This document shows positions 1-12,824 of a stretch of 49,410 nt of DNA, one piece after another; position 1 is the first letter of the stretch, and each line of letters starts with the position of its first letter. Source of the DNA: an uncultured Clostridia bacterium (GTDB lineage: Bacteria; Bacillota; Clostridia; TANB77; CAG-508); the NCBI GenBank assembly GCA_944392635.1, contig CALXXH010000001.1:1-49410 (forward strand). The letters are read 5' to 3'. The translations under genes and the position numbers were made by a program. A model generated the notes under the pieces. The model searched no databases, was not told the origin of the DNA, and worked only from the letters and a program-made list of their open reading frames with translations.

Positions 1-145
1 CATACACATAATTCCATCTATCTTCTGGTGCTTTAAACCTTAAACTATATTCTATGTTTTCTATGTTAGCCTCTATTTCTCCATATTCTTCATTTTCTTT
101 TAGAACATTTTTTATTTGTTCTAAGACCTTAAATATATCTCTCAT
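1..145 (-). CDS. Hypothetical protein, N-terminal part only (runs off left edge)
   Basis: ATG at 145-143 behind a GAGGAAGAAAG SD. Reads MRDIFKVLEQIKNVLKENEEYGEIE...; no recognisable family. Confidence 0.4.
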   Translation of the reverse strand, partial: MRDIFKVLEQIKNVLKENEEYGEIEANIENIEYSLRFKAPEDRWNYVY

Positions 146-162
146 CTTTCTTCCTCTACTTT

Positions 163-504
163 CTATCCCATCTTAACTATTGTTATTTCAGGAATTGTTA
201 TTCTTTCTTTCTCAAAAATCCCCATATAATTACTATCATAGGCTCTTATGCTTTTATCTATATAAACAGGAATTTGTATTTGCCTTTTTTCTCTTACTTC
301 CATAACTCCAACTGTATCTAATATTGTTTCTATCCATTTTATTAATTTTTGGTTTTGTTCCATTGTCTGGCTAGATATTTTTTCTAAATTATCTATTTGT
401 TTACTCCAATTTCTTTCGTTTTTTATATATCCTTCAATTTCATTATTTAAGCTATATACTTCTCGTTCTAATTTTTTTACTTTTTTTCTGTTGAATATAT
501 CCAT
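163..504 (-). CDS. Hypothetical phage protein (113 aa, coiled-coil N-terminus)
   Basis: ORF with an AAGGAAGGAAGGA SD upstream; same strand and tight packing with neighbours. Confidence 0.55.
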   Translation of the reverse strand: MDIFNRKKVKKLEREVYSLNNEIEGYIKNERNWSKQIDNLEKISSQTMEQNQKLIKWIETILDTVGVMEVREKRQIQIPVYIDKSIRAYDSNYMGIFEKERITIPEITIVKMG

Positions 505-557
505 TATTCCTTCCTTCCTTTCTAATACCAGAATATTTTTTGATTTTTTTCTGGTAT

Positions 558-884
558 TTAATTAATAGTAGAACTTTCTTCTAGTCTATTTTTAAAATAT
601 TTTATATAACTTTCTATTTCTTCTTCATCTTCTTTATTTTGAATATATTTTCTCTTGTTGTCTTCTTTTATGTAATATCCTTTACTGTTTTTGTAAATTG
701 CTTTTGGTCTTATTTGAATACTGTCAGTATCTTCACTTAATATTAAGACATCATCATTTTTATTAAACGTTCCCATTTCTAATAAATAACCAAGTGTAGC
801 TGTCGCATTATATTCATCTATCTTTTCTTTTAATATAATTCTGTCTTTAGACATATAATGTGATTTTAATATTATAAATTTCAT
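558..884 (-). CDS. Hypothetical phage protein (108 aa)
   Basis: ORF preceded by a GGAGGATAAATAGT SD. Confidence 0.55.
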   Translation of the reverse strand: MKFIILKSHYMSKDRIILKEKIDEYNATATLGYLLEMGTFNKNDDVLILSEDTDSIQIRPKAIYKNSKGYYIKEDNKRKYIQNKEDEEEIESYIKYFKNRLEESSTIN

Positions 885-907
885 ACTATTTATCCTCCAA
901 ATTTTTT

Positions 908-1075
908 TTAATCATCTAATTTTATAATTATATAGCGACTATTTCTTTTATATTTTTTTGTTATTGCTGTTCTTATTGTGTTTTCTGTAGTATCAAAATA
1001 TTTTGCAATTTCTTTTACTTTATCAAAAATAGCTACGCACTGTTCGTTGTTTTTTAAATCATATATCGCATACAT
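908..1075 (-). CDS. Small HTH-like protein (55 aa), below the ORF-track cutoff
   Basis: ATG 1075-1073 lies 5 nt after GGAGGATAA. Sequence MYAIYDLKNNEQCVAIFDKVKEIAKYFDTTENTIRTAITKKYKRNSRYIIIKLDD has a helix-turn-helix-like core (EIAKYFDTTENTIRTAI). Confidence 0.4.
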   Translation of the reverse strand: MYAIYDLKNNEQCVAIFDKVKEIAKYFDTTENTIRTAITKKYKRNSRYIIIKLDD

Positions 1076-1076
1076 A

Positions 1077-1346
1077 TTATTTATCCTCCAATAATTCTTT
1101 TAATGTATCTATTTTTAACAATATTTCTCCTGGTGTATATTCTTGTAGTTTTCCTTCCGTTGTTGCTTTTAACATTTTTCTTAATGTTTCTATTTTATCT
1201 TTTACTTTTTGTTTTAAAATATAGTTACTTCTTATTGCTTTTTTATTTACTACATCTATGTCATAAACAGATATTCCACCATCTATTAGCATATCTATTG
1301 TATTTATTAGATGCTCTCTATAATCTTGTTTTTGTTCTTCTTCCAT
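1077..1346 (-). CDS. Hypothetical phage protein (89 aa)
   Basis: ORF whose stop abuts the SD of the next gene. Confidence 0.55.
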   Translation of the reverse strand: MEEEQKQDYREHLINTIDMLIDGGISVYDIDVVNKKAIRSNYILKQKVKDKIETLRKMLKATTEGKLQEYTPGEILLKIDTLKELLEDK

Positions 1347-1348
1347 TT

Positions 1349-1651
1349 TTACATCTCCTCATCTATTAATTCGTGTAATGAAACACATTCATTCTCTAAG
1401 TCTTGTATAGTTTCTTTTAATTGCCATATTTTATTTTCTTTATTTACTATTTCTTCTTCTAGTTCTTTTATTATTGCTTTATCTTGTTTTCGTTCTAATA
1501 AAATGTGCTCTAGTGCATTTATACAATCAATAGTCTTTTCATCATATCCTAAGTCATTGTAGAAAATTTTATGTTGTCCTTCATATATTAATATGTTTAA
1601 GTATCTTTCTAAATTATTTAATATCTTTACATCTTCTTCTATATTACTCAT
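1349..1651 (-). CDS. Hypothetical coiled-coil protein (100 aa)
   Basis: ORF with a 4-nt overlap with the upstream gene (1648-1651). Confidence 0.55.
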   Translation of the reverse strand: MSNIEEDVKILNNLERYLNILIYEGQHKIFYNDLGYDEKTIDCINALEHILLERKQDKAIIKELEEEIVNKENKIWQLKETIQDLENECVSLHELIDEEM

Positions 1652-1893
1652 CTTCCCACCTCTAATCTATCTTCTATCGTTAAATTATTAAATATAATCT
1701 CGTAATCTAGCAACTGTAGATGCTGTTTGTCTATTATTTCTTTTGCATTATCTAATTCTATTTGCAAATTTATTATTTTATCTTCTTGCTCTAATATTGT
1801 TTTATTTCTGTATTCTATATTTGCAAATAAGAATATTGTTAGTAAAAAGAATATTATTAGTGCTATTATTAATTCTCTTATGTGTTTTTGCAT
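1648..1893 (-). CDS. Small membrane-anchored coiled-coil protein (81 aa)
   Basis: N-terminal hydrophobic helix LIIALIIFFLLTIFLFANI followed by a heptad-rich tail; AGGAGAAAACA SD. Confidence 0.55.
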   Translation of the reverse strand: MQKHIRELIIALIIFFLLTIFLFANIEYRNKTILEQEDKIINLQIELDNAKEIIDKQHLQLLDYEIIFNNLTIEDRLEVGR

Positions 1894-1924
1894 TGTTTTC
1901 TCCTTTCTGCTTCTTGAGAAGCTT

Positions 1925-2428
1925 TTATAGTTTGATTTTCTCTCTTAATTTTCTAATTATTCTGCTAACATGTGGTTGAGAACAACCTGCTATTTTTGCT
2001 ATCTTTTCTTGTTTGTATCCTTTTAAACTTAGTTCAAAAACTATTTTTTCTTGTTCTTTTAATTTGCTATTTCTTATTTGAGTTATATAATTTTCAATGT
2101 CTAGATTATTTTCTGATTTCTCTATGTAGTTGTTTTTGTCTGCTAAAACATCTTCTAATGTTATTTTTTCACCTATTTCTTGTTTTAAAGATATTGTATT
2201 ATAATGTTTCTTTGTTGTTCTCAAATAGTAGTTTATTTCGTTAGATATTACTGTATAAGCATATGTACTAAATGCATGTCTATTATTAAATGTTAGTACT
2301 GCTTTCCATAATCCCATTAATGCAATTTGTTTTATATCTTCATATTCATTTGCATAATTTATTAAATATTTATTTGCTATTTTATATGCTATATTTATGT
2401 TTTTATTAAACATTTCCTCATTTGTCAT
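1925..2428 (-). CDS. Sigma-70 family RNA polymerase sigma factor, sporulation (SigF/SigG)-like, element-encoded
   Basis: Region 2 motif IALMGLWKAVLTFNNRHAFSTYAYTVISNEINYYLR. Region 4.2 HTH KQEKIAKIAGCSQPHVSRIIRKLREKI. 167 aa, lacks region 1/3. Confidence 0.8.
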   Translation of the reverse strand: MTNEEMFNKNINIAYKIANKYLINYANEYEDIKQIALMGLWKAVLTFNNRHAFSTYAYTVISNEINYYLRTTKKHYNTISLKQEIGEKITLEDVLADKNNYIEKSENNLDIENYITQIRNSKLKEQEKIVFELSLKGYKQEKIAKIAGCSQPHVSRIIRKLREKIKL

Positions 2429-2431
2429 AAA

Positions 2432-2953
2432 CTACTCCTTGTAATTACTTTCAAATTTATATTTGTTTAAAATGTTGTTTGTTTTTGTGTAATCAAATAT
2501 ATCTTGTCTTTCTTCTATAATTTTGTCTTTATAAAATTCAATTTCTTGATTTATTTCTTTTATAAGCTCAGTATTTTCAAATTTTATTCCTTCAAATAAT
2601 TGTTTTATAAAATATGGTTCTTCTAAATATCTAAAATTAAATCCTCTATAATTAAAATTGTCTTGTGGTTTTTCAACATTAACTTCTTCTATTAGGTTTT
2701 CTTTTAAGTAATCAAATATGTTTATTTCTTCTGATAGTAAGACTTGTATTAAATCTTTACTATCAGAATTGTAAAATGTTATATATGTATTTTCTTTATT
2801 ACTTGCTATGCAAAAGTATGTAATTATATTATTTTTTCTTTCTTCCTTGATTATTTCTCTAGAATCAATTTTTAATACTTTAAATAAATTTTTAAATCTT
2901 TCTTTTTCGTTTATAATTTCTTCGTATTCTTTCTTTGTAATATATTCTTTCAT
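2432..2953 (-). CDS. Hypothetical protein (173 aa from ATG 2953; ORF track uses GTG 2965)
   Basis: The ATG overlaps the upstream stop as TAATG and sits 6 nt after GGGGA. No recognisable motifs. Confidence 0.6.
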   Translation of the reverse strand: MKEYITKKEYEEIINEKERFKNLFKVLKIDSREIIKEERKNNIITYFCIASNKENTYITFYNSDSKDLIQVLLSEEINIFDYLKENLIEEVNVEKPQDNFNYRGFNFRYLEEPYFIKQLFEGIKFENTELIKEINQEIEFYKDKIIEERQDIFDYTKTNNILNKYKFESNYKE

Positions 2954-3567
2954 TATTTTCCCCACATTTCTTCAAAGTTTGATTCGCTTTCTAGTTGATC
3001 TAAATCAATTTTATTTTCTTGTTCTTGAAGTTGTGCGTTACTTGCATTAAACTCTATATCTATATCTTTTTGTATATCATCTATATTAAATTCTTCAAAT
3101 TCACCAAATTGGCTTTCATATTCTTTTACTGCTTTACTAAATCTGTTTTTTGATTTCATTGTTTCTAAATTGTTTTGTAAATTTCTTATTTCCTTTTCAT
3201 ATCTCTCTTTTGCCTCTTTGAATCTTTGAACTATTAATTCTTGTTTTTGACTTTGTTCTTTTAAAACTGTAATTCTTTGTTTGGTTGTATTTAATTCTTC
3301 AAATATCTGTTTAGCTCCGTCTTTATCGTTTTTCGTTTTACAGATATCAAAACACTTATTTAATTTCTTTTCATTTTCTTGATTTTTCTTTAATTCATTT
3401 TTATATGATTCTAAAGCTCCTTGTGCATTATAATAACTATCATTTAATTTTTTTAAAGCTTCTTTTTGTCTGTTTAATCCTTCTTCTATTTTTTCTATAT
3501 TGTCTACCTTTACAAATTTATTAAATATCCTATCAAATACTATTTTTAATTTTGTTAATTTTTTCAT
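2953..3567 (-). CDS. All-helical coiled-coil protein, PspA/IM30-like (tentative)
   Basis: 204 aa with continuous heptad pattern and an acidic C-terminus. Start overlaps the channel stop as ATGA. PspA resemblance is judged by eye from length and pattern only. Confidence 0.6.
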   Translation of the reverse strand: MKKLTKLKIVFDRIFNKFVKVDNIEKIEEGLNRQKEALKKLNDSYYNAQGALESYKNELKKNQENEKKLNKCFDICKTKNDKDGAKQIFEELNTTKQRITVLKEQSQKQELIVQRFKEAKERYEKEIRNLQNNLETMKSKNRFSKAVKEYESQFGEFEEFNIDDIQKDIDIEFNASNAQLQEQENKIDLDQLESESNFEEMWGK

Positions 3568-4289
3568 TTTTCATCATTCTCCTTTTCTTTTTCTTTATTT
3601 AATTCTTCTACGAATCCACTTGTTATAATTCCAGTCGGAAGTGCTACAAATGCAATCCCTACTAAGCTAGAAATTATACTTATTAATCTTCCTATTTCTG
3701 TTTTAGGACAGATATCTCCATAGCCAACTGTCGTTAATACTGTCGTAGACCAGTATATTGCCTCAAAAAAGTTTTTAAAACTCTGATTTTCAAACTGAAA
3801 CATTATTAAAGCTGATATGAATATAAATCCTGCAGTAAAACCACATACAACTTCTAATATTTTTTGTTTTTTTATGACTACATTCTTTATTATTTTAAAT
3901 TTAGTAGAATATCTTAATGTTTTCGCAATTCTTAATATTCTAAATACACTAAATATTCTTAAAATGTATGAACTGTTAAATATTTCACTGAAACATGATA
4001 ATATAACTACTAAATCAAATATAGCTGAAAGTGTAAATGGATATTTTATAAAACTAATCGTTCCTTTTTTCAATCTAAAATCTGCTGTTATCCACCTCAA
4101 AATATAATCAATTACAAATACAATTGTTGTTATAATTGTTAAACTATATGTGAAATTATTTTGTTGTTTAAATGTTAATGGAATTATACTTACCCAAACG
4201 CAAACTAATATTAATATGTCATACCATTCGTAATATGTTGTATCTTTCTCGATTATTTTAAATAACTTTTTTCTTACCATGACAACCAT
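3564..4289 (-). CDS. Voltage-gated-type (6TM) potassium channel, minimal, no cytoplasmic domain
   Basis: Canonical K+ selectivity filter TTVGYGD. S4-like segment FRILRIAKTLR (RxxRxxKxxR). Six predicted TM helices in 241 aa. Confidence 0.85.
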   Translation of the reverse strand: MVVMVRKKLFKIIEKDTTYYEWYDILILVCVWVSIIPLTFKQQNNFTYSLTIITTIVFVIDYILRWITADFRLKKGTISFIKYPFTLSAIFDLVVILSCFSEIFNSSYILRIFSVFRILRIAKTLRYSTKFKIIKNVVIKKQKILEVVCGFTAGFIFISALIMFQFENQSFKNFFEAIYWSTTVLTTVGYGDICPKTEIGRLISIISSLVGIAFVALPTGIITSGFVEELNKEKEKENDEK

Positions 4290-4924
4290 ATAGCAAAACC
4301 TGCTATTCCTCCAATTATTGCTAATATAATTACTACAAATAATAACCAGTTATACCATTTCCAGCCATCATAAAACGGTTTGTTCGCTTCTTCCTCTGTC
4401 CTTGCTTCATCTAGGATTTGGTCTACTTCTTCTTTTGTATATCCTCTTTCTTCTAAAGCTTTTGCTACATCTTGTTCAGTTACTGTATCTTTATCAGAAA
4501 AAATTTGGTCCAGCATATAAAATTGGAATATACTATTAGTTAAAGAAATTCCTCTATCTGTACTATATGTCGTATAATATGTTGGATTGTTGTTAATTAT
4601 TGTAGATTTGCCATTTGAATCTGTTTTCGGTTTTACTGTTTCATGATTTATTGTTGTTCTTCCAGAATTATTTTTTGTTGTTGTATAACTTTTTCCTGAT
4701 GAGCTACTTTTTGTTGTGCTTGATTTTGGAGTGCTAGACTTTACTGAACTACTTGTGCTACTTTTAGCAGAGCTTTTAGGTGTGCTAGACTTCACACTAC
4801 TATGTGAACTTCCGCTTCTTCCTCCGCTTGAATGTGCTCTTGCATATGTTAATGAGCTTCCTGATATTACTATCATTATTAAAATTACTATACTAATTAT
4901 TTTTTGTAATTTGTTTCTTTTCAT
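4274..4924 (-). CDS. Bitopic membrane protein with Ser/Thr/Lys-rich low-complexity tract
   Basis: N-terminal signal-anchor IISIVILIMIVISGSS, ~70 aa of S/T/K repeats (SSVKSSTPKSS x2), C-terminal TM LLFVVIILAIIGGIAGFAIWL. GGAGGATAAAA SD. Confidence 0.65.
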   Translation of the reverse strand: MKRNKLQKIISIVILIMIVISGSSLTYARAHSSGGRSGSSHSSVKSSTPKSSAKSSTSSSVKSSTPKSSTTKSSSSGKSYTTTKNNSGRTTINHETVKPKTDSNGKSTIINNNPTYYTTYSTDRGISLTNSIFQFYMLDQIFSDKDTVTEQDVAKALEERGYTKEEVDQILDEARTEEEANKPFYDGWKWYNWLLFVVIILAIIGGIAGFAIWLSW

Positions 4925-4926
4925 TT

Positions 4927-5313
4927 TTATCCTCCTATTTTTCTATCTTTTAAAATTCTTGGTTCGTATTTTCTGTTTTCTTGTCTTTTTTGCAATTTGT
5001 ATAATTCTTTTATTAATATTTTTATTTCATTCGTTATAAATTTGTTGTTGTATTTATCTGTAAAATTCTTTATTAGTTTTACTCTTTCAATGTCATTTTT
5101 TATTGTTCTTCTTTCTTTTCTTACTCTCTTTAAATCTATTGCTACTTTTGTTATTTCTACTGCATTTAAATTGTTTAATTCTAATTCGTGTAATAAATCT
5201 TGTTGTTCTGCTTCTTTATTTGCTAATTCTTGTAATAAATTGCTGTGTTCTGCTTCTACTTCCTCAAAAAATGATTTCATTATCTTTAATATTTCTTCTG
5301 GTGTTAATTCCAT
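4927..5313 (-). CDS. Hypothetical coiled-coil protein (128 aa)
   Basis: ORF with SD; first gene of the coupled cassette. Confidence 0.6.
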   Translation of the reverse strand: MELTPEEILKIMKSFFEEVEAEHSNLLQELANKEAEQQDLLHELELNNLNAVEITKVAIDLKRVRKERRTIKNDIERVKLIKNFTDKYNNKFITNEIKILIKELYKLQKRQENRKYEPRILKDRKIGG

Positions 5314-5325
5314 TTTTTATCACTC

Positions 5326-5688
5326 TCAATCTATGTGTGGTATATGATTATAATTTTGTTCTTCTAGTTCTATTTGCTCTGCTTTCTTTAAATATGCTAT
5401 ATATTTACGCATTTGCTTTTTTAATTGTTTTGTTCTTGATTTGCATTCATTAAGACTATGTTCTACTTGTTTTATTTCCTCTTCTCTTTCTTTTTTCGAC
5501 ATACTTCTTAATTCTCTTGCTAATCTATAACCGCTTCTTTGACTGCTATATATTACTACTCTTTTCTTTTTCAATTCACTTATTTCTCTTCTAACTGCTC
5601 TATCTGATAATCCTGTTTTTTCTACTAACTCTTTTCTTGTTGTATATTTAGTAGCACTTAGATAATTTTCAATATTTATATCTTTCAT
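5326..5688 (-). CDS. Winged-helix DNA-binding protein (120 aa from ATG 5688; ORF track start 5775 also possible)
   Basis: HTH-like TRKELVEKTGLSDRAVRREISELKKKRVV. ATG 5688 is preceded by an AGGAG SD, whereas the 5775 start has only a weak SD. Confidence 0.6.
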   Translation of the reverse strand: MKDINIENYLSATKYTTRKELVEKTGLSDRAVRREISELKKKRVVIYSSQRSGYRLARELRSMSKKEREEEIKQVEHSLNECKSRTKQLKKQMRKYIAYLKKAEQIELEEQNYNHIPHID

Positions 5689-5708
5689 ATTCTTTTTTCT
5701 CCTTTGAT

Positions 5709-5828
5709 TTAATGTGTTCTTATATCTTGTGTATATACTGCTTGTCCTTTTATAATTTTTATTAGTATTTGACATCTTTCTATGTCATTTGCTTTTCTTA
5801 TATCTTCTTCATTTATTACTTTTTTCAT
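5709..5828 (-). CDS. Possible small ORF (39 aa), below the ORF-track cutoff
   Basis: ATG 5828 lies 8 nt after GAGAGG (last codons of dnaB). MKKVINEEDIRKANDIERCQILIKIIKGQAVYTQDIRTH. Stop sits just before the AGGAG of the next gene. Mutually exclusive with the 5775 start of the wHTH ORF. Confidence 0.35.
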   Translation of the reverse strand: MKKVINEEDIRKANDIERCQILIKIIKGQAVYTQDIRTH

Positions 5829-5833
5829 ATGAT

Positions 5834-7054
5834 TTACCTCTCTAAATTTATAAATTCACTGTTTATTTTGTTAAACTTTAGTCTACTTTTACCTATATTT
5901 CCTGCCCTTTGTTTTTGTAAGTCTACTGTTACTATATTGTTTTCTACATCTTCTTGATATAAAAAGATTACATTGTCAGCATCTTGCTCTATTGATCCAC
6001 TTTCTCTAATATCAGCTAATGTTGGTTCGTTCTTTGTTGCATTTCTATTTAACTGGCAAAGTGCAATTATTGGTATTTCTAATTCTAAGCTTAACAATTT
6101 TAATGTTCTTGATATATCTGCTACTTCTTGTTCTCTACTTTTAAAATTTTCTAAATTTTTAACTAATTGAAGGTAGTCTATGATTAGCAAATCTAGTTTT
6201 CCTTTGTTTTTTAATTTCCTTACCTCTATTTCTATTTGTTGTATAGAATTTAATTTTGTATATAGCAACAAAGGTAAATCACTAATCTCTCCACATTTAA
6301 TATAAATTTTATCTAGTTCTTCTCCTGTTAGTTCTCCATTTCTAATTTTTCTAGAGTTTACTCTTGCTTTTCTTGATAGAATTTTTTGTATTATCTGTTC
6401 TTCTGACATTTCTAAACTAACAAATGCTACACTTTTGTTATAACTTGCTATTCTTTCTGCAATCTGTAGTACAAATGTTGTTTTTCCAACTCCTGGTCTT
6501 GCTCCAATTATTGTTAATTCTCCTTTGTGAAGTCCATCTGTCAAGCTATCTAAATCAAAAAATCCTGTGTAATAAGACAAATCGTTTTTTCTTGCCATGT
6601 TTTTTTCGATTAAGTCTGTTGTTCTTGCTATTAGATTTACAAAGTTTTCATTTTTTTGTGTTTGCATTTCTATTTTTTGCAATTTAGATATTACTTTTTC
6701 TATGTATAAATCTGTATTTTCTGCTTCTTTTATTTCTTTTTCTATCTCTTTTGCAACTAGAAATGTTTCTCTTTTCTTAGTTAATTCTTTTATAGCTTTA
6801 TATGTCCCTTCTGTTGTACTGCCTATTGTGTATGCTCCTAGATTTGATAGATAGTTTATAATGTCTTTTTCTTTTTCTAGAATATTTGCTATGTTTATAA
6901 TGCTTATTTCTTTTTTCTCTATTTTTAATTTGTTTATAGCTTTTATTATGTTTTTGTTTGTAATATTTACGAAATCATTTTCTGTTAAATTAACTTCTCC
7001 GTTTTCAAAAATTATGAAGTATAACATTGCTTTTTCTAGTTCTTCGTTATACAT
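5834..7054 (-). CDS. dnaB: Replicative DNA helicase, DnaB family (element-encoded)
   Basis: Walker A GARPGVGKTTF, Walker B LLIIDYLQL, RESGSIEQDAD motif; 406 aa. Confidence 0.9.
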   Translation of the reverse strand: MYNEELEKAMLYFIIFENGEVNLTENDFVNITNKNIIKAINKLKIEKKEISIINIANILEKEKDIINYLSNLGAYTIGSTTEGTYKAIKELTKKRETFLVAKEIEKEIKEAENTDLYIEKVISKLQKIEMQTQKNENFVNLIARTTDLIEKNMARKNDLSYYTGFFDLDSLTDGLHKGELTIIGARPGVGKTTFVLQIAERIASYNKSVAFVSLEMSEEQIIQKILSRKARVNSRKIRNGELTGEELDKIYIKCGEISDLPLLLYTKLNSIQQIEIEVRKLKNKGKLDLLIIDYLQLVKNLENFKSREQEVADISRTLKLLSLELEIPIIALCQLNRNATKNEPTLADIRESGSIEQDADNVIFLYQEDVENNIVTVDLQKQRAGNIGKSRLKFNKINSEFINLER

Positions 7055-7868
7055 ATCTTTTTCCTCCGCTACTCATTTTTTGTTTATATTCTTCTTCTGT
7101 CATTTTCACTTCTTTGTATTCTGCTTCTATTCCTTGCTTTTCTTCTTCCTGTTCTGTGTAGTCTAGTATTGCTTTATTAAAGAATGTATCGCCATGTTTT
7201 ATATATTGCTCTTCTGTTCTGTTCTTTTTACATTCTTCTTTATATTTTCTTACTGCGTTTTCTATCTGTTCATTAGTTAGTTTTTTAGTAATACCAGATA
7301 TCTTTCTGCCTTTTATCCATTGCTTATAATATTCAAATGCTTTAGCCTTTCCTTTTTTATGTGGATATTCTTTCCAAATTTTTTCAAAATTGTCCTGCAA
7401 AATATTTTTTGCAGTATATATATTTATATTATTAATACTTGTAATATTCTCTTTGACATTTTTATCAAGGGGCGTTTGACATTTTTGTGAATAGGGTGTT
7501 GATGTTTTTGTCAATACCTTATTACCTTGATTTTCTTGATAAGAGGTATTGACATTTTCATCAATAGGTATTTCATCTTGAAAAAATTTACTTATAGATA
7601 TAATTCTTTTATCTATTTCTTTACTATCTTTTTTGTAAAACATTTTTATAGCTATATATTTCTTTTTCGCTAATTGACTAATCCATCTAGAAATAGTTTC
7701 TTTAGTTGTACTATATAAATCAGCAAAGTATTGATTTGATGCCCAACAAACACCTTTTTCGTTACATAAAGAAGTTATTTCTCCATATAATAACTTTGCA
7801 TTTGCTGTCAGCTGTTTATCGTATCTAATTTCTGCTGGTATTATTGCATAATAATTAGGTTTTTCCAC
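7047..7868 (-). CDS. Replication initiator / replisome organiser, N-terminal HTH plus DnaD-like C-terminus
   Basis: GTG start 7868 behind AAGGAG. N-terminus YYAIIPAEIRYDKQLTANAKLLYGEITSLCNEKGVCWASNQYFADLY...ISRWISQL is typical of phage initiators. Iteron array lies inside the gene; 8-nt overlap with dnaB. Confidence 0.75.
   Translation of the reverse strand: MEKPNYYAIIPAEIRYDKQLTANAKLLYGEITSLCNEKGVCWASNQYFADLYSTTKETISRWISQLAKKKYIAIKMFYKKDSKEIDKRIISISKFFQDEIPIDENVNTSYQENQGNKVLTKTSTPYSQKCQTPLDKNVKENITSINNINIYTAKNILQDNFEKIWKEYPHKKGKAKAFEYYKQWIKGRKISGITKKLTNEQIENAVRKYKEECKKNRTEEQYIKHGDTFFNKAILDYTEQEEEKQGIEAEYKEVKMTEEEYKQKMSSGGKRYV
7453..7564. repeat. Iteron array, putative origin of replication of the element
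   Basis: 16-bp units with inverted ends TTGAY-N6-RTCAA at 7453 (TTGACATTTTTATCAA), 7476 (TTGACATTTTTGTGAA), 7499 (TTGATGTTTTTGTCAA) and 7549 (TTGACATTTTCATCAA), plus a degenerate copy at 7527. The first three are spaced exactly 23 bp apart. Confidence 0.6.
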
Positions 7869-7892
7869 TTTTCATTCTCCTTTCCTAAAATA

Positions 7893-7920
7893 TTAGGCTA
7901 GATTTTTGTGTCTAGCCTTA
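7893..7920 (-). terminator. Stem-loop between operons (weak terminator candidate)
   Basis: AGGCTAGA (7895-7902) pairs with TCTAGCCT (7911-7918); only a short U-run follows on the minus strand. Confidence 0.35.
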
Positions 7921-7925
7921 GTTGT

Positions 7926-8381
7926 TTATATGTAAAATTTCCCAAAAACTTCTAAAAATTTTTCTTTTGAATATAATTTGTAGAATTTTTCTTTTGCTTC
8001 TTTTCGTACTGTTTCTTTTATTTCTTTATTTGTTTTCCACTCATCATGACATTTTCTGCAAATTGGAATTACTAATCCCCATTTCATACATGTTTGTCTA
8101 TTAGAACCTTCAAAAATTTCATGTAAGTCCTCTTTTCTTGCTTTGTTACAGATATAACAAATTTGCATACTATCTGTTAAAATACTAAATCTTTTAGATT
8201 CTAATTTCTTTAATTTATTACTTTTCTTTTTAAGCTCTTTTACTTGCTTAAATTCTTTGTATTTACATGTTCTACAATCTTTAAAGTTAATTTCTTTTTT
8301 CTTTTGTTTGCAATATATGTATTTTTTGTAATCCTTTGTTCTAATTCTTAAGTGTATGCATTTCATCTTTTTAAACCCCAT
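7926..8381 (-). CDS. Cys-rich zinc-finger protein with HNH-like signature
   Basis: CRTC...CYICNKARKEDLHEIFEGSNR...ICRKCHDEW follows the CxxC...H...N/R...CxxCH pattern of His-Me finger proteins. Family not identified. Confidence 0.5.
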   Translation of the reverse strand: MGFKKMKCIHLRIRTKDYKKYIYCKQKKKEINFKDCRTCKYKEFKQVKELKKKSNKLKKLESKRFSILTDSMQICYICNKARKEDLHEIFEGSNRQTCMKWGLVIPICRKCHDEWKTNKEIKETVRKEAKEKFYKLYSKEKFLEVFGKFYI

Positions 8382-8625
8382 CTTTTGGTTTTTCTTTTAC
8401 TAAGAGTTTTGTCATTCCAAAATTAAATCCACATTTACTACAGTAACTATCAGTGTGTGAACACTTTTTTAAGCATTTTGGGCAATATGTGTCCAAACAT
8501 TTTTTGATAACTATTTCGTTATCTTTCTCTATTATCTCTAAGCCATCTCCTTCTTTTAAGTCATATGCTTTTCTAATTTCTGCTGGAATAACTATTCTTC
8601 CTAATTCATCTAATTTTCTAACCAT
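8371..8625 (-). CDS. AbrB/SpoVT-family DNA-binding protein with C-terminal zinc ribbon (84 aa from ATG 8625)
   Basis: MVRKLDELGRIVIPAEIRKAYDLKEGDGLEIIEKDNEIVIKK is a swapped-hairpin AbrB domain; CPKC...CSKC follows. The internal ATG has a better SD (GGAAGGAAA) than the 8667 start. Confidence 0.75.
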   Translation of the reverse strand: MVRKLDELGRIVIPAEIRKAYDLKEGDGLEIIEKDNEIVIKKCLDTYCPKCLKKCSHTDSYCSKCGFNFGMTKLLVKEKPKDGV

Positions 8626-8706
8626 ATTTCCATTTCCTTCCTTGATTTTTCTAATAAAATTTTGCATAATATTAGAGAAATCATATATTTATGTATTTAT
8701 TTTGAG

Positions 8707-8988
8707 TTATCTAATTGTTTCCGTTTTATTATTAGATAGCTCATTATTTAATATTGTTCTTATTTTATTTTTTAAATTTTCAATGCTATTATAGTCTTGT
8801 TGTTTTAATAATTTATCAATTGCTAACAATTTTTGATGATGATTATAATTTTCTAAATGCTCATATTCTATTTCATTTCTTAAATTCTTTTGACTTTGTT
8901 CTTGTCTTTCTATTTTATGTTGCAATTCTTCTATCTCATTTTCTTTTGCACTTACTATTTTGTTATGCAATCTTTTACTTATAAACAT
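8707..8988 (-). CDS. Hypothetical coiled-coil protein (93 aa)
   Basis: ORF with a GGGAGGAAAATTA SD. Confidence 0.5.
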   Translation of the reverse strand: MFISKRLHNKIVSAKENEIEELQHKIERQEQSQKNLRNEIEYEHLENYNHHQKLLAIDKLLKQQDYNSIENLKNKIRTILNNELSNNKTETIR

Positions 8989-9003
8989 TAATTTTCCTCC
9001 CTT

Positions 9004-9189
9004 CTATTTACAATTTTTACAATAATAATGTCCTTGTTTGTTATATAAAGTTGTGTTTTTACCACATTTTTCACAAACAATTCTTTTGCTCATCATTGCC
9101 ATTCTTTTTGCTTCTTTTTCTTTATGACTTTTGCTATTTGTTTTTGGTTGTTTGTTTAACACTTTTGCTACTGCACTCAAATATCCCAT
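9004..9189 (-). CDS. Small zinc-ribbon protein (61 aa)
   Basis: CEKCG...CKNCK at the C-terminus; AAGGAAAGGAGTGA SD. Confidence 0.5.
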   Translation of the reverse strand: MGYLSAVAKVLNKQPKTNSKSHKEKEAKRMAMMSKRIVCEKCGKNTTLYNKQGHYYCKNCK

Positions 9190-9208
9190 TTTTCTTTCAC
9201 TCCTTTCC

Positions 9209-9237
9209 TTGTAAAATTACTTTTAATGATATATAAT
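9209..9237 (+). promoter_or_regulatory. Sigma-A-type promoter for the plus-strand gene 9291-9557
   Basis: TTGTAA (9209-9214), 17-nt spacer, TATAAT (9232-9237). Confidence 0.55.
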
Positions 9238-9290
9238 TACCTCACACTTAAGAGAAAAATATTTTGATTTTAGAAAGTGAGGTGTTTTAT

Positions 9291-9557
9291 ATGCAACCAG
9301 ATTTTCAAAAGTTTCTAGATGACTGTATCCATAAATATAACGATGAATATTTTCCATATCTTTGTGATGAGCAAGAAAAAGGTCAACATTCTCTAGAAGA
9401 AAAATCAATACATGATGATGGATATACTCTACTTGGAAAAATTATCGGCTATAATGTAGGTCATGGAATAAAAAGTAGTAATTACATATCTCTGAAACAT
9501 CTAGAACAGTATCACAACTGGCTACTTGAAAATTACGATATAAAACCTAAGAATTAG
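9291..9557 (+). CDS. Hypothetical protein (88 aa), lone opposite-strand gene in the early region (moron-like)
   Basis: ATG 9291 lies 8 nt after GTGAGGTG. Own promoter. 3' end overlaps a convergent small ORF by 11 nt. Confidence 0.55.
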   Translation: MQPDFQKFLDDCIHKYNDEYFPYLCDEQEKGQHSLEEKSIHDDGYTLLGKIIGYNVGHGIKSSNYISLKHLEQYHNWLLENYDIKPKN

Positions 9558-9852: not shown

Positions 9853-10056
9853 CTAAAATATTTGTTGCATTATTTCAAATGCTTTATCTAAATTTACTTT
9901 TTTACTTCTTGTGCCTGTTTTTGTAACTGCTTCTTTCATTTCTGGCATAGCTAGTATTTTATAAGCTTGTGACCTACTTAAACTATATTGCTCTTGAAAC
10001 TCTTTAACAGTTATGTATTTTGCTCTTGCTTTTTCTTGTAATCTAGTCATTGGCAT
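9853..10056 (-). CDS. Excisionase-like / MerR-type HTH protein (67 aa from ATG 10056)
   Basis: ITVKEFQEQYSLSRSQAYKIL HTH; AAGGAGGCGACAAAAA SD precedes ATG 10056. The ORF-track start at 10086 lacks an SD. Confidence 0.6.
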   Translation of the reverse strand: MPMTRLQEKARAKYITVKEFQEQYSLSRSQAYKILAMPEMKEAVTKTGTRSKKVNLDKAFEIMQQIF

Positions 10057-10285
10057 TTTTTGTCGCCTCCTTTGCTTTTGTTTCACAGTTAGTGAATGTA
10101 AAAGGTATAAAAATATCTTTTGTGTTACAACCTAAAACTTTTGCTATTCCTTCTGCTTTATCTTTTGGTATTTTTCTTTGATTATTTTCATACATATTGT
10201 AACAACCAACTGAAACATTAATTTCATTCGCCATAAACTGTTGAGTATAACCTTTTTCTTGCCTTCTTTTTTCTATTTCTGTCAT
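10043..10285 (-). CDS. XRE-family HTH regulator, Cro-like position
   Basis: GYTQQFMANEINVSVGCYNMYENNQRKIP HTH_3 pattern. First gene of the leftward operon, divergent from the repressor. Confidence 0.8.
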   Translation of the reverse strand: MTEIEKRRQEKGYTQQFMANEINVSVGCYNMYENNQRKIPKDKAEGIAKVLGCNTKDIFIPFTFTNCETKAKEATKNAND

Positions 10286-10458: not shown

Positions 10459-10824
10459 ATGGATAATATTTTAGGAAAAAGAATTGAGTTTGAAAGAATT
10501 AGACTTAAATTAAATCAAATAGAATTAGCTAAAAGATTAAATCTATCATCTAGTGCTTCTATCTCTCAATATGAAAGTGGAGATAGGATACCAAGTGATG
10601 ATATAAAACTTAAAATGTGCGAAATTTTTAATTGCTCATTAGATTACTTGATGGGTAAAACAGACATACGAAATCCTGGTCAACAGATAGACGATGTTTT
10701 AAATGAAGCTATGATAGGCATGTCAAAAGCAGAATATGACAAATTAACTGAAACTCAAAAGAAGCAAATTAGAGATTTTGCTATATTTGTTAAGAATCAA
10801 AATGAAGAAAAAAAGAAAAAATAG
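10459..10824 (+). CDS. XRE-family repressor (CI-like)
   Basis: N-terminal HTH_3 (LNQIELAKRLNLSSSASISQYESGDRIPS); position upstream of the ImmA-like gene and int. Confidence 0.85.
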   Translation: MDNILGKRIEFERIRLKLNQIELAKRLNLSSSASISQYESGDRIPSDDIKLKMCEIFNCSLDYLMGKTDIRNPGQQIDDVLNEAMIGMSKAEYDKLTETQKKQIRDFAIFVKNQNEEKKKK

Positions 10825-10835: not shown

Positions 10836-11000
10836 ATGTTTGGAAAAAATAATGAAAAAAAACAAAAAATTCAAGAGTTATCACAAAAACTTGAAGATTT
10901 AAAATTAAAATCACAAAATCCTAATTTATCACAAGAGGAATTTGAAAAATATCAAAATGAACTTGCACAAATAAATCAAGAAATAGATGAATTGCTTTAA
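10836..11000 (+). CDS. Small coiled-coil ORF (54 aa), below the ORF-track cutoff
   Basis: ATG 10836 lies 5 nt after TAGGAGGTA. MFGKNNEKKQKIQELSQKLEDLKLKSQNPNLSQEEFEKYQNELAQINQEIDELL. Confidence 0.45.
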   Translation: MFGKNNEKKQKIQELSQKLEDLKLKSQNPNLSQEEFEKYQNELAQINQEIDELL

Positions 11001-11017
11001 TTTTTGTGGAGGTACAA

Positions 11018-11438
11018 ATGAATTTAGAAAATTTATATGATATTGCTGAAAAAGAAGATATAAAAATCTATGACTGGCAAATAGAGGATGTTGATGGAAT
11101 GTATCTAAATTATCATAACATTAATGCTATTGCTTTAAATTATGATAGATTAGGTACATATGTAGATGAAAAATGTACATTAGCTGAAGAATTAGGTCAT
11201 TATTATATGGATGCTACATATCCTGCTTCTAGCACAGATAAAATATTAATTGATAAACAAGAATATCGTGCTAAGAAATGGAGTTATTATGTACTAATTC
11301 CTTTTGAAAATCTAAAATCAGCAATTTTAAAACGGGATAGATAATCTTTATAGTCTTGCTGATTATTTTGAAGTTACGGTTGAATATATGCGAAATTGTA
11401 TAGAATTTTATAAAAGAAAATATGGAGAGGTGTTTTAA
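11018..11438 (+). pseudogene. ImmA/IrrE (M78)-like metallopeptidase gene, reading frame broken at an A-run and zinc motif altered
   Basis: ATG 11018 after GGAGG. The frame stops at 11342-11344 (…SAILKRDR*). The +1 frame from 11331 encodes NGIDNLYSLADYFEVTVEYMRNCIEFYKRKYGEVF, a typical ImmA C-terminus, ending in TAATG overlapping the int start. Motif reads AEELGH instead of HExxH. Confidence 0.6.
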
Positions 11439-12577
11439 TGTTTACTTATACTACTAGAAAAGATGGCAGACTAATGAAAAAAGTTACTATAAACGGTAAA
11501 GTAAAATATCTATATTCAAATAATAAAGAAGACTTAGAAAAACAATATATAGAAGCAAAACACATGTCTTATAATGGACTTAACATAGATGACAGCAAAA
11601 TAACATTAAAGCAATGGGCTGAAAAATGGTATGATGTAAATATATCTCAAAAAGAATACAACACAAGAAGAAGTATAAGAAATTTGTTAGATAACCACAT
11701 TTATCCTGAACTAGGACATATTAAACTAAAAAATCTAAAAGTTATTAATATAAAAGAATTGCAAAAAAATATGTTAGAACAAGGGCTGACCTCTACTTGC
11801 AATAGAACAATAACAACTATCAAAAGAATTTTAAATGATGCCGTAGAAAATGATATAATTCAAAAAAATGTTGCCTTTAATATTAAATCTATTAAATACA
11901 CAAAAATAGAAAAAAGACCTCTTACTTCTTATGAAGATGAACTTTTATTAAAAGTAGCTTCAAACCATAAATATGGAATATTCTTCTTAATTTTAAGATA
12001 TTGTGGTCTAAGAACAGAAGAAATTATACCTCTAACAATAAATGATATTGATTTAGAAAATAAAAGAATATTGGTGAATAAAGCTACATATTTTGAAAAA
12101 AACAATCCTAGTATAAAAACTACTAAAAATAAAAAATCAAGAAAAGTTCCAATTTTAGATATAATATATAAACAATTAGAAAGACATATTGAAATATGTA
12201 AAGAAAACAATCAAGAATTACTTTTTACAAAACAAAGTGATAACAAAATGTTAACATCTTCAAGCATTCGATGGATGTTAAAATCTTTTCTAATCGCTAT
12301 TAACAAACAATATGAAAAAGAGCAAAAAGAAAAAGACAATAAATTTAAACTAACGAATGACACCAAAATATATTTCACTAATCATGAACTTAGACATTCT
12401 TATTGCACAATGCTATATTATGCGGGAATAAAAATTAAAAAAGCTCAAGAGTTAATGGGGCATTCATCTGCAGATATGGTCTATAATGTATATACTCATT
12501 TAGATGAAGAAAGAGAAAATGTTGATGAAACTTTAAATAATTATTGCAATAAAGTTGTCAAAAAAGTTGTCAATTAA
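11438..12577 (+). CDS. int: Tyrosine recombinase / phage integrase
   Basis: C-terminal catalytic pattern LRTEE..., HELRHSYCTMLYYAG, GHSSADMVYNVYTHL (R..HxxR..Y). N-terminal SAM-like domain; adjacent to the tRNA fragment. Confidence 0.9.
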   Translation: MFTYTTRKDGRLMKKVTINGKVKYLYSNNKEDLEKQYIEAKHMSYNGLNIDDSKITLKQWAEKWYDVNISQKEYNTRRSIRNLLDNHIYPELGHIKLKNLKVINIKELQKNMLEQGLTSTCNRTITTIKRILNDAVENDIIQKNVAFNIKSIKYTKIEKRPLTSYEDELLLKVASNHKYGIFFLILRYCGLRTEEIIPLTINDIDLENKRILVNKATYFEKNNPSIKTTKNKKSRKVPILDIIYKQLERHIEICKENNQELLFTKQSDNKMLTSSSIRWMLKSFLIAINKQYEKEQKEKDNKFKLTNDTKIYFTNHELRHSYCTMLYYAGIKIKKAQELMGHSSADMVYNVYTHLDEERENVDETLNNYCNKVVKKVVN

Positions 12578-12630
12578 TTTTAACATCTTCTATAGTTAGC
12601 CTGTAGCAATAGCTATAGGTTTTTATGTTT

Positions 12631-12674
12631 TTTGCTTAGGAGGCAACTGCTCTATCCTGCTGAGCTATAGGCAC
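12631..12674 (-). tRNA. tRNA-Arg(CCU) 5' portion only (truncated after the anticodon arm)
   Basis: Minus strand reads GTGCCTA TA GCTC AGCAGGATA GAGC A GTTGC CTCCTAA GCAA(A). No variable loop, T-arm or 3' acceptor follows. TTGATT-17-TATAAT lies just upstream (rc of 12693-12721). Confidence 0.6.
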
Positions 12675-12824
12675 ATTAAAATCTTCTAGGATATTATAAT
12701 ATATTTATATTTAAAAATCAACTAAATAAATATTATTTTATGCACCTAACTTTTCGCAAGATGAGTTAGTGCAAATACAAAAAAACTCTTGACATCTTCT
12801 GGTATAATAAAAATGGTGATTAAG

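Follow-up and report, generated by a model that had tools for sequence, protein, structure and literature searches.

What could a phage gain from a potassium channel of the voltage-sensor type, encoded next to a PspA-like protein? The question is raised by positions 1925-5313 of the window (the whole stretch of 49,410 nucleotides analyzed here), where six minus-strand ORFs had been described in an earlier note as one translationally coupled unit of a prophage-like element. All six are present at the coordinates claimed, and the element is a prophage, with an integrase (11438-12577), ImmA-like (11006-11344), cI-like (10459-10824) and cro-like (10043-10285) genes, as well as DnaD and DnaB genes. 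What this gut Clostridium prophage carries, judging from comparative data, is a smaller, mobile module of four genes in the order Ser216, Kch241, cc204 and p173 (2432-4924, minus strand). Our preferred reading is that of a phage accessory module acting at the host cytoplasmic membrane, to which we would assign a probability of roughly 0.45.

Extent and Setting of the Module

The junctions between the six genes are as tight as had been claimed. The end of Ser216 overlaps the start of the channel gene at 4274-4289 (the overlap shrinks to 7 nt if the alternative ATG at 4280 is used), followed by an ATGA junction at 3564-3567 and a TAATG junction at 2951-2955. The two outer gaps, p128 to Ser216 and p173 to the sigma factor gene, measure 2 and 3 nt respectively, both with an AGGAG-type Shine-Dalgarno sequence inside the upstream gene. 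Such overlaps are usual among phage genes of one operon. The packing is equally tight downstream (p81 and p100 overlap by 4 nt, p100 and p89 are separated by 2 and p89 and p55 by 1) and upstream (DnaD and DnaB overlap by 8), and therefore coupling delimits no unit here.

The edges of the module appear when related phages are compared. Using positions 1-9500 of the window as a blastn query against 13 related loci, the shared block of nucleotide homology spans 2449-4945 (no strand assigned) and shows where, in the mosaic, the mobile module begins and ends. The DNA is 68-88% identical to its relatives over 2449/2451-4945, and in more distant loci the match reaches only to 4605/4698. Neither 1925-2448 nor 4946-5707 has homology to any of the 13 loci in this search, i.e., nucleotide homology stops exactly at the module edges. 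The flanking genes follow the same pattern. The coiled-coil protein p128 (4927-5313, minus strand; phrog_2717, E 1.9e-11, a PHROG of unknown function) has a homologue near the cassette in a single locus, L013, some 700 nt upstream, and none in the closest relatives; these comparisons place it outside the module. On the other side, sigma167 (1925-2428, minus strand) belongs to the sigma-70 family (Sigma70_r2, E 1.7e-13; phrog_351, E 1.8e-29; TIGR02937, E 4.6e-27) and is probably a phage late-gene regulator. A homologue of it adjoins the cassette in none of the related loci, and L120, a locus 97% identical to this one, has a p81-like gene directly after p173. The idea of six genes forming a discrete unit that feeds into a sigma factor had to be given up on both counts, only four of them being co-conserved.

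The module shares its strand with the cro-like, DnaD and DnaB genes and lies downstream of them; from 7895 to 1925 this strand has no terminator-like site. Promoter-like matches are no more frequent than expected from shuffled sequence (80 found, 88 expected). We considered whether the module is an autonomous moron that carries signals of its own, and rejected this; in this prophage it is a cassette embedded in the early lytic operon, and its position suggests early expression.

Conservation among Phages

The four genes were found in the same order, with ORFs overlapping or nearly abutting, at 34 loci on some 25 distinct contigs that correspond to temperate phages or prophages of about 40 kb. 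Most of the loci examined come from closely related gut phages. A different lineage of 114-124-kb phages, which carry PolIII-alpha, RNR, an RNA ligase and a RecBCD inhibitor, also has the module, at 47-68% amino acid identity, with different flanks and among early DNA-metabolism and host-takeover genes. Synteny is therefore conserved, also across two unrelated phage backbones. With this and the fold result for cc204 described below, neither of the computational outcomes that the earlier note named as refuting its reading was obtained. All four genes are under purifying selection, with dN/dS values of 0.04-0.47 overall (0.16-0.43 for Ser216, 0.08-0.18 for Kch241 and 0.04-0.47 for cc204), and at long range the channel is the most constrained of them.

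The composition of the module varies in a regular way. The channel is optional, being carried by about 80-85% of the loci and cleanly missing in six (L007, L008, L013, L025, L126 and L127), and these variants show that the remaining three genes can do without it, whatever their role. Ser216 is present nearly always: wherever the flanking sequence is long enough it precedes the cc204 homologue, the one exception being L027, which has neither Ser216 nor the channel at that place. In contrast to the optional channel, cc204 and p173 are constant and make up the invariable core dyad of the module, with p173 always downstream. Even the most distant p173 relative (P0111, 26% identity) directly follows a cc204 homologue, with stop and start overlapping. 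Holin or endolysin genes are next to the module in no locus examined. No defence family of PADLOC-DB was matched (cc204 gave coiled-coil noise, while the channel, p173 and p128 had no match at all). The earlier statement that no described system has this composition holds for the searchable literature, in which we found no description of a Kv-type channel combined with a PspA-like protein, its partner and a Ser-rich protein.

The Potassium Channel

By sequence criteria, Kch241 (3564-4289, minus strand; 241 aa) is a minimal six-transmembrane, Kv-type potassium channel, with an S1-S4 voltage-sensor domain and a pore, as first proposed. It matches Pfam Ion_trans (PF00520) with 96.9 bits (E 1.4e-27; cut-off 25) over residues 21-230, corresponding to profile positions 2-237 of 241, and also Ion_trans_2 (E 2.5e-17) and phrog_7872 (E 4e-37). 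The best match among PDB sequences is KCNQ2 (E 7e-24, residues 18-237), and the best in NCBIfam, below threshold, is a hyperpolarisation-activated archaeal channel. The selectivity filter TVGYGD occupies residues 187-192, and the pattern TTxGYGD is unchanged in 13 relatives. The S4 segment reads R117-x-x-R120-x-x-K123-x-x-R126, plus R110, and only some 15 residues follow S6, with no cytoplasmic domain. Among the relatives, down to 42% identity, the charge-transfer residues of S2 and S3 (F58, D61 and D92) are invariant, as are R65, R126-Y-S and P218. The number of S4 charges drops to three in some cassette lineages.

These features are shared with the channels of the KvAP, KvLm and MVP types and with eukaryotic Kv7/KCNQ, namely the Ion_trans architecture, the basic repeats of S4, the F/D/D charge-transfer residues and the filter. 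Kch241 differs from them in standing at the minimal end of the size range (241 aa, no cytoplasmic domain), in being phage-encoded and in the lineage-dependent number of its S4 charges. More distant relatives (31-48% identity) were located on 68 viral contigs, typically in lysogeny modules. Their immediate upstream neighbour is an ORF for an XRE/cI-type HTH protein in 39 of 68 cases; on the downstream side, 20 of 65 are followed directly by an integrase or recombinase gene and 8 of 65 by a gene for an Abi_2 protein. We know of no established function for any phage channel.

The Core Dyad: cc204 and p173

The claim of the earlier note that the 204-aa protein resembles PspA/IM30 is backed by a fold search and by profile matches that are weak but in register. 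cc204 (2953-3567, minus strand) is predicted to be a soluble, all-helical protein. Its AF2 model (pLDDT 73 overall, above 90 over the hairpin) has a long hairpin of two helices (7-78 and 82-139) followed by four short C-terminal helices, the arrangement of an ESCRT-III-type fold (a long alpha1-alpha2/3 hairpin, then shorter helices). When this model was compared with the PDB by Foldseek, the top 13 matches were all Vipp1 or PspA (E 2.5e-3 to 0.1), and E. coli PspA(1-144) (4WHE) superposes on it over 119 columns with an rmsd of 1.9 A. The matches also included coiled-coil hairpins of other proteins, for example the iSH2 domain of p85. A profile of the cc204 family searched against PDB sequences gave Vipp1/PspA as the top four matches (E 0.012), with residues 10-147 aligned to 10-149. 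Residues 1-21 form a predicted cationic amphipathic helix (hydrophobic moment 0.55-0.58), as expected for helix alpha-0.

At the level of primary sequence the signal is fainter. The cc204 of the window reaches 9.5 bits with PF04012 (E 0.93; cut-off 33.9), and 6 of 14 family members have a sub-threshold PspA_IM30 match (best E 0.012). In the L026 homologue, 56% identical to cc204, PspA_IM30 is the top match (26.1 bits, E 7.9e-6), and no family member examined, this one included, exceeds the cut-off. The hhalign comparison with four genuine PspA sequences gave P 0.0012, with a score of 29.4 against 26.6 for the reversed-sequence control; such a nearly equal control means that this signal reflects the helical-hairpin architecture and is not proof of homology. 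A1 against E. coli PspA alone gave no match. We regard cc204 as PspA/Vipp1-like by predicted fold, with sequence support that is weak but always in register.

The other member of the dyad, p173 (2432-2953, minus strand), is an acidic protein of 173 aa, predicted to be cytoplasmic and alpha/beta, from an orphan family. Its AF2 model is of good quality (pLDDT 88), and Foldseek found no fold neighbour for it in the PDB (best E 0.09, TM no higher than 0.22). There was no family match in Pfam, PHROG, NCBIfam or PADLOC, and its profile retrieved only 14 matches from 1.84 billion representatives.

The Serine-Rich Membrane Protein

The first gene of the module, Ser216 (4274-4924, minus strand), encodes a bitopic membrane protein of 216 aa that is, as described before, rich in Ser and Thr (60 of 216 residues). 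By hydropathy it has two TM-like segments, an N-terminal signal or TM segment at 4-30 and a C-terminal one at 189-216. In the alignment of the family, the Ser/Thr/Lys-rich tract (about 70 aa) varies, whereas the C-terminal half is conserved; the tract is followed by a conserved membrane-proximal region and this by the C-terminal TM segment. The membrane-proximal region contains NNNPTYY..SL.NSIF.YYML, the bihelical stretch TEQDVAKALEERGYTKEEVDQILDEA and PFYDGWKWYNW. From its charge distribution, the body of the protein is probably extracytoplasmic; if so, it cannot serve as a cytoplasmic anchor of the LiaI or PspB/C type for cc204. Ser216 matches phrog_30129 (E 6.5e-16), of unknown function, and, very weakly, a superinfection-exclusion PHROG (E 0.023).

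In its general layout (signal sequence, Ser-rich spacer and small helical domain at the outer face of the membrane) Ser216 is reminiscent of the Ltp-type exclusion lipoproteins of Streptococcus phages. It differs from them in that it has no cysteine, and hence no lipobox, in its C-terminal TM anchor, and in being encoded in an early operon rather than in a lysogeny module. A tblastn search of phage genomes with Ser216 found nothing, and the protein does not resemble Ltp or Sie proteins in sequence.

Possible Function and Alternatives

Membrane repair and upkeep of the proton-motive force are established tasks of PspA-family proteins, holins fire upon depolarization and the membrane potential is perturbed by phage DNA entry. 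Against this background, the module probably controls or protects the potential and the integrity of the host membrane during infection. Its products would appear early in the lytic cycle. With its N-terminal amphipathic helix, the PspA-like protein would attach to the membrane from the cytoplasmic side and oligomerise, sealing or stabilising the stressed membrane as PspA, LiaH and Vipp1 do, while p173 could assist it as chaperone, regulator or adaptor. The channel would couple the membrane potential to the flux of potassium and so clamp or reset the potential of the infected cell. Ser216, exposed at the surface, may tether the channel or modulate its activity, or it may protect the envelope on the outer side. 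Jointly they would preserve both the energised state and the integrity of the membrane up to programmed lysis, the threats being depolarization by a superinfecting phage, membrane-targeting abortive-infection effectors or premature triggering of the holin.

A device for superinfection exclusion or abortive infection built around the channel is the alternative with the most to recommend it, although we consider it unlikely. Here the voltage sensor would detect the depolarization caused by incoming DNA injection and the open channel would dump potassium or collapse the potential, with the result that DNA entry is blocked or the cell killed; the PspA-like protein would keep self-damage in bounds, with Ser216 as an outer barrier to the incoming phage. 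The distant channel relatives do typically reside in lysogeny modules, the usual place of prophage defence genes, and a role of the chlorovirus channel Kcv in host depolarization and in the exclusion of secondary infection is documented (cited in Greiner et al., 2018, PMC6163359). Ser216, besides, has the layout of a surface-exposed exclusion protein and the faint PHROG match mentioned above. However, the cassette lineages have these genes in the early lytic region, away from the repressor, cassettes that lack the channel persist, none of the PADLOC defence families was matched and Ser216 has neither the lipobox nor any similarity to Ltp or Sie proteins. Moreover, opening a potassium channel normally moves the potential towards E_K, which is repolarising, rather than collapsing it.

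That cc204 is a generic coiled-coil hairpin unrelated to PspA, and the adjacency of the four genes an inherited order devoid of joint function, seems improbable to us. The hhalign control, the Pfam cut-off that is never passed, the presence of the iSH2 domain in the fold search and the close relatedness of most loci all speak for it. But the best matches of three kinds of search (Foldseek, PDB profile and, for the L026 homologue, Pfam) are all PspA/Vipp1 in the same register, and the N-terminal amphipathic helix is where alpha-0 would be expected. Likewise, the block is intact in the very different backbone of the large phages, homology ending at its edges, and the pairing of cc204 with p173 survives down to 26% identity. 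Even slimmer are the chances of a lysis-timing device, in which channel activity would fix the membrane potential for holin triggering and the PspA-like protein would delay or sharpen this event. Holin triggering does depend on the membrane potential and all four products are membrane-associated or membrane-directed, but the module adjoins no holin or endolysin genes in the loci examined and is found in early, not late, regions. As to the interference with sporulation that the earlier note also suggested, none of the observations points to it specifically.

Returning to the preferred reading of an accessory module at the membrane, a more daring version is conceivable, which we put forward as speculation and think more likely wrong than right by a wide measure. 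Phages of gut Clostridia would possess a self-contained module of bioelectric control, in which the channel is both sensor and effector of the potential and works with a phage-specific ESCRT-III/PspA-like repair machine and a partner of novel fold, so that the infected cell resists depolarising attacks. If true, this would be a new class of phage counter-defence and the first physiological role for a voltage-gated channel in a bacterial virus.

Comparison with Known Systems

Compared with the PspA/IM30/Vipp1/LiaH proteins (bacterial ESCRT-III superfamily; PF04012), cc204 has the same size, the N-terminal amphipathic helix and the long hairpin followed by shorter helices, and, as with PspA genes, its gene comes with a constant small partner and with a gene for a membrane protein. 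It departs from them in its sequence similarity, below the family threshold, and in being phage-borne, within an early lytic operon. The partners also differ from those of the Psp and Lia operons, being neither PspB/PspC, LiaI/LiaF, YdjG/H/L, a CesT/Tir-like chaperone nor a band-7 protein; Ser216 and p173 have no Pfam or NCBIfam match to the known Psp/Lia partner families, and the p173 model has no type-III-chaperone neighbour in the PDB. As a virus-carried potassium channel, Kch241 can be set beside Kcv and the 2TM channels of phages (Greiner et al., 2018, PMC6163359). These viral channels are almost all pore-only 2TM proteins, whereas Kch241 has a complete voltage-sensor domain and belongs to a conserved multi-gene module.

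A precedent for linking PspA with a potassium channel is provided by the yjfJ-type operons (Ravi et al., 2024, PMC11237479), which combine, as the module does, a PspA-family gene, a potassium channel (ligand-gated in their case), a dyad partner and small membrane proteins. Those operons are chromosomal, proteobacterial and linked to polyamine metabolism, whereas the module is phage-borne. Their partner is CesT/Tir-like and encoded upstream of pspA, while p173 is an orphan fold encoded downstream, and their channel has an intracellular ligand-sensing domain in contrast to the bare 6TM voltage-sensor type of Kch241 (Ravi et al., 2024, PMC11237479).

Extent of the conserved unit and its prophage setting

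Six ORFs on the minus strand, from 5313 down to 1925, had been described in the earlier note as a single translationally coupled unit ending in a sigma factor. All six are present: a 128-aa protein (p128, 4927-5313), a Ser-rich membrane protein (Ser216, 4274-4924), the potassium channel (3564-4289), a helical protein of 204 aa (cc204, 2953-3567), a 173-aa protein (p173, 2432-2953) and a sigma-70-family factor (sigma167, 1925-2428). Their junctions read exactly as had been described, with Ser216 and the channel overlapping by 16 nt at 4274-4289 (by 7 nt should the channel start at the ATG at 4280), ATGA at 3564-3567 and TAATG at 2951-2955; the outer junctions of the run have gaps of 2 and 3 nt. 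The arrangement with the 16-nt overlap is kept in 92%-identical relatives. However, coupling does not delimit a six-gene unit, because similar packing extends on both sides, with spacings of -4, 2 and 1 nt among the downstream genes p81, p100, p89 and p55 and an overlap of 8 nt between DnaD and DnaB upstream. The observation was therefore largely correct, but the unit had been drawn too wide and the conserved part consists of four genes, Ser216, channel, cc204 and p173. Nucleotide homology between the window and the related loci runs from 2449 to 4945 and ends there on both sides. The sigma factor does not belong to the system, since no sigma167 homologue adjoins the cassette in any related locus; in a 97%-identical one (L120) p173 is directly followed by a p81-like gene and the sigma gene is missing. 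A p128 homologue was found near the cassette in one locus only. The 81-aa gene that follows the sigma factor in the window (1648-1893) has an N-terminal TM segment (residues 3-29), and the gene directly after p173 in L120 is its 35%-identical homologue.

The cassette is located in a prophage end that occupies positions 1 to ~12,600 of the window (G+C ~25%). This region contains an integrase (11438-12577) with a terminator-like hairpin directly after it, an ImmA-like gene (11006-11344) and a cI-like XRE repressor (10459-10824), both on the plus strand, and a cro-like gene (10043-10285) divergent from the repressor side. From the cro-like gene to the start of the window the minus-strand genes are closely packed, the DnaD-like gene (7047-7868) and DnaB (5834-7054) among them, and the cassette is within this early, lytic-direction operon. 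A terminator scan gave no terminator-like sites on the minus strand from 7895 to 1925, promoter-like matches showed no excess over the shuffled (chance) expectation, and the Rfam and tRNA scans of the entire window were empty, with no tRNA gene. The close relatives of the cassette come from MAGs of gut samples labelled uncultured Clostridium or Clostridia.

Two hairpins of this region deserve mention. A perfect 8-9-bp GC-containing hairpin at 7895-7918 (AGGCTAGA...TCTAGCCT), with a terminator-like score on both strands, is found within the early operon, where it separates the DnaD-like gene from a 151-aa gene and may act as an internal terminator or attenuator. The hairpin right after the integrase gene is a strong one and falls in the interval 12598-12800. 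As host genes begin at ~12789, the prophage/host junction (attachment site) should be located within this same interval.

Conservation and spread of the module

The search of viral, genome and metagenome collections with cc204 yielded ~40 loci. In every locus with enough flank p173 directly follows cc204, a Ser216 homologue precedes in all but one, and the channel appears between Ser216 and cc204 in 34 fetched loci (~25 distinct contigs). The proposed co-occurrence of the channel with the PspA-like gene is thus borne out, the synteny being kept across related loci. A second phage lineage, with genomes of 114-124 kb, carries the four genes in identical order and with identical spacing, at identities of 52-54% (Ser216), 67-68% (channel), 53-55% (cc204) and 47-48% (p173). 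Here the cassette has a ribonucleotide reductase on one side and a T7 Gp5.9-like RecBCD inhibitor on the other, with DNA polymerase III alpha, an RNA ligase and a Holliday-junction resolvase nearby. The adjoining RecBCD inhibitor (the gene after the cassette, at 7208-7411 in L014 and 9202-9408 in L015) places the cassette of this lineage among host-takeover genes. All four genes are under purifying selection (dN/dS 0.04-0.47). The module has moved between phage backbones with its composition and order conserved, under purifying selection and in early or host-takeover positions.

Six loci (L007, L008, L013, L025, L126 and L127) have no channel and keep Ser216, cc204 and p173. Comparison of two of the loci, L003 and L007, shows that a 777-nt segment, comprising the last TM codons of Ser216 and the channel, is cleanly replaced in L007 by 72 nt coding for an alternative TM end. 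One further locus (L027) has neither Ser216 nor the channel upstream, and the most distant p173 relative (26% identity) directly follows a cc204 homologue (56% identity) with stop and start overlapping. Taken together, these loci identify the cc204-p173 dyad as the core of the module; the third member, Ser216, is nearly constant, and the fourth, the channel, is frequent yet dispensable. In another locus (L129, 1426-1608) the cc204 homologue is truncated after ~61 residues, and in a different record (P0055) a cc204 homologue apparently continues into a PF00872 transposase domain as a fusion, suggesting that an insertion sequence has entered the cassette.

The PspA-like protein cc204

A resemblance of the 204-aa protein to PspA/IM30 had been guessed from its length and heptad pattern. 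The single sequence gave nothing significant against Pfam or PDB sequences, and its family is narrow (62 clusters, 53-96% identity, none of them annotated). With 14 family members taken from database homologues as input, AlphaFold2 gave a model (pLDDT 73, >90 over the core) in which two long helices (7-78 and 82-139) pair as a hairpin and four short ones come after it. Against the PDB, the best 13 Foldseek matches of this model are all Vipp1/PspA (E 2.5e-3 to 0.1), and the hairpin of E. coli PspA(1-144) fits on it at 1.9 A over 119 columns. The family profile places four Vipp1/PspA entries first among PDB sequences (E 0.012), in a collinear alignment (10-147 against 10-149). The Pfam family PspA_IM30 appears below threshold in 6 of the 14 family members with the register unchanged, and it is the top match of a 56%-identical homologue on another contig (L026; E 7.9e-6, 26.1 bits, the cut-off being 33.9). 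Residues 1-21 are predicted to form a cationic amphipathic helix (hydrophobic moment 0.55-0.58), as expected for helix alpha-0.

An hhalign comparison of the cc204 family with four genuine PspA sequences (E. coli PspA and YjfJ and two clostridial PspA proteins) aligned in register with P 0.0012. The reversed sequence scored nearly as well (26.6 against 29.4 for the real one; block-shuffled controls 13 +/- 2), so this alignment shows a shared hairpin architecture and is not counted as evidence of homology; with E. coli PspA alone the family profile gave nothing. The PspA-like call holds at the level of the predicted fold. In its modelled fold cc204 is PspA/ESCRT-III-like, and it is probably a very divergent PspA homologue, short of a demonstrated family member.

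p173 and Ser216

The AlphaFold2 model of p173 is a confident one (pLDDT 88) and consists of an N-terminal helix, six strands and three helices. Foldseek found no neighbour of this model in the PDB (best E 0.09, TM no higher than 0.22), and Pfam, PHROGs, NCBIfam and PADLOC gave no family match; this predicted structure may represent a new fold. We have rejected a CesT/Tir-like chaperone, to which none of these searches gave a match. A p173 profile retrieved only 14 matches among 1.84 billion representative proteins. For two distant relatives (P0111 and P0106) the viral and metagenome scans were empty, and their genomic context was taken from exact sequence look-up. A tblastn search of p173 and Ser216 against 50,697 phage records gave no matches.

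Ser216 matches phrog_30129, a family of unknown function. The protein begins with a hydrophobic segment followed by a Ser/Thr/Lys-rich tract of variable length; the membrane-proximal region, with a bihelical acidic motif and an aromatic belt, is conserved and precedes a C-terminal TM segment. The charge distribution suggests that the body of the protein is outside the cell. An Ltp-type lipoprotein was ruled out, since the sequence has no cysteine.

The channel and its wider family

The description of the channel as a 6TM Kv-type protein was accurate. Its 241 aa match nearly the entire Pfam Ion_trans profile (96.9 bits), Ion_trans_2 and phrog_7872 (E 4e-37), a phage family without known function. 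The best match among solved structures is Kv7/KCNQ2 (E 7e-24, residues 18-237), and the best NCBIfam model, far below threshold, is of the hyperpolarisation-activated archaeal type. The filter TVGYGD is at 187-192, the basic residues of S4 are R110, R117, R120, K123 and R126, and F58, D61, R65 and D92 in S2/S3 are invariant down to 42% identity. Only ~15 residues follow S6. The S4 charges vary within the cassette lineage, from five in the window to three (R117, K123 and R126) in the lineages at 78% and 68% identity; more distant channels from lysogeny modules have about six basic residues.

Database relatives number 2,907 at E <= 1e-10. Those from cassettes are at least 68% identical and are set apart by a gap from a large group at 45-51% (235-260 aa); 111 IMG/VR viral contigs carry a relative. 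We have counted the neighbours of non-cassette channels in 68 loci for the upstream ORF and 65 for the downstream one (L049-L119 are IMG/VR contigs). In 39 of 68 the upstream neighbour codes for an XRE/cI-type HTH protein, a third of these (13/39) with a Peptidase_S24 domain, and the ORF immediately downstream is a tyrosine integrase (14/65), a serine recombinase (6/65) or an Abi_2 protein (8/65). None of the 68 loci has a PspA-like neighbour. The same layout is repeated in individual examples (Dulem virus 33, L029 and L030). These neighbours indicate that the minimal Kv-type channel is a common accessory gene of lysogeny modules in temperate Firmicutes phages. Such relatives, which are at 31-51% identity and are present in L001, L029 and L030 too, seem to make up a family of phage-borne voltage-sensor K+ channels that has gone unstudied. 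In the cassette lineage the channel is put to a distinct use, in an early lytic context.

A putative role in membrane maintenance

The most likely coherent reading of the module is the maintenance of membrane potential and integrity. PspA-family proteins oligomerise and thereby stabilise or repair membranes. Made at an early stage of lytic growth, the module would provide cc204, which could bind the inner face of the membrane via helix alpha-0 and oligomerise in the manner of that family, stabilising or repairing the membrane, with p173 as its putative chaperone, regulator or adaptor. The channel would link membrane potential to K+ flux and so clamp or reset the potential, and Ser216 would work at the outer face. 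The infected cell might in this way be shielded, until programmed lysis, from depolarisation by superinfecting phages, membrane-targeting abortive-infection effectors or early holin firing.

The main rival, favoured by the lysogeny-module and Abi_2 surroundings in which the wider channel family occurs, is that the channel itself brings about exclusion or abortive infection. The cassette, however, is in an early operon, persists in channel-less form and has no defence-family matches; as a known defence system it was rejected, PADLOC giving no match. We consider a role in lysis timing, or four genes kept together without any joint function, less likely. What stands from the earlier interpretation, which saw a manipulation of host membrane potential, is a real channel, a PspA-like protein at the level of the fold and a conserved synteny; the role given to the sigma factor does not.

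To our knowledge, it has long been an open question what prokaryotic voltage-sensor K+ channels do physiologically, and phage-encoded K+ channels have been catalogued with no function ever assigned. The conserved synteny ties a minimal Kv-type channel to a PspA-like membrane-stress protein and so gives a concrete, testable context, membrane potential and integrity in phage infection. This compact link makes the module of real interest: the four genes span only 2.5 kb, natural channel-less variants can be used as controls, and a very small voltage-sensor channel and possibly a new fold (p173) become available for structural work. The frequency of channel relatives beside repressor, integrase and Abi genes suggests that phages widely manipulate the electrophysiology of their hosts and that this strategy has been overlooked.

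Comparison with described systems and other phage records

The earlier note knew of no system of this composition, and our literature search likewise found no account of the four-gene module, nor of any 6TM channel from a phage for which a role is known. The module is a new combination of known kinds of parts, undescribed as far as we could find. The phage K+ channels listed by Greiner et al. (2018; PMC6163359) are almost all 2TM, none with an assigned function. PspA partners have been described (Ravi et al., 2024; PMC11237479), including one proteobacterial yjfJ-type operon with a ligand-sensing K+ channel, a CesT/Tir-like partner and polyamine genes. The literature also notes pspA-like genes in jumbo phages, and BFVD holds a phage protein named PspA/IM30.

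The jumbo Acinetobacter phage vB_AbaM_ME3 (L038) has a 2TM K+ channel (ME3_147, 10849-11223) and, by its BFVD/UniProt name, a PspA/IM30-family protein. There is no PspA-annotated gene within ~10 kb on the low-coordinate side of ME3_147 or ~14 kb on the high-coordinate side, and the PspA candidate ME3_184 has no Pfam match; we have thus rejected this phage as an independent pairing of the two. The channel matches of 'Acinetobacter phage MD-2021a' and two PspA matches of 'Bacteriophage sp.' were left out of the phage evidence because their contigs carry bacterial housekeeping genes. The two 'Bacteriophage sp.' records (UNVERIFIED; L032, MT835668.1, and L033, MT839532.1) contain TrpS-like, PcrA/UvrD-like and Tgt-like genes, the MD-2021a record (L035, CAKLQF020000002.1) contains tamB and acnB, and all three look like bacterial contigs in a phage collection.
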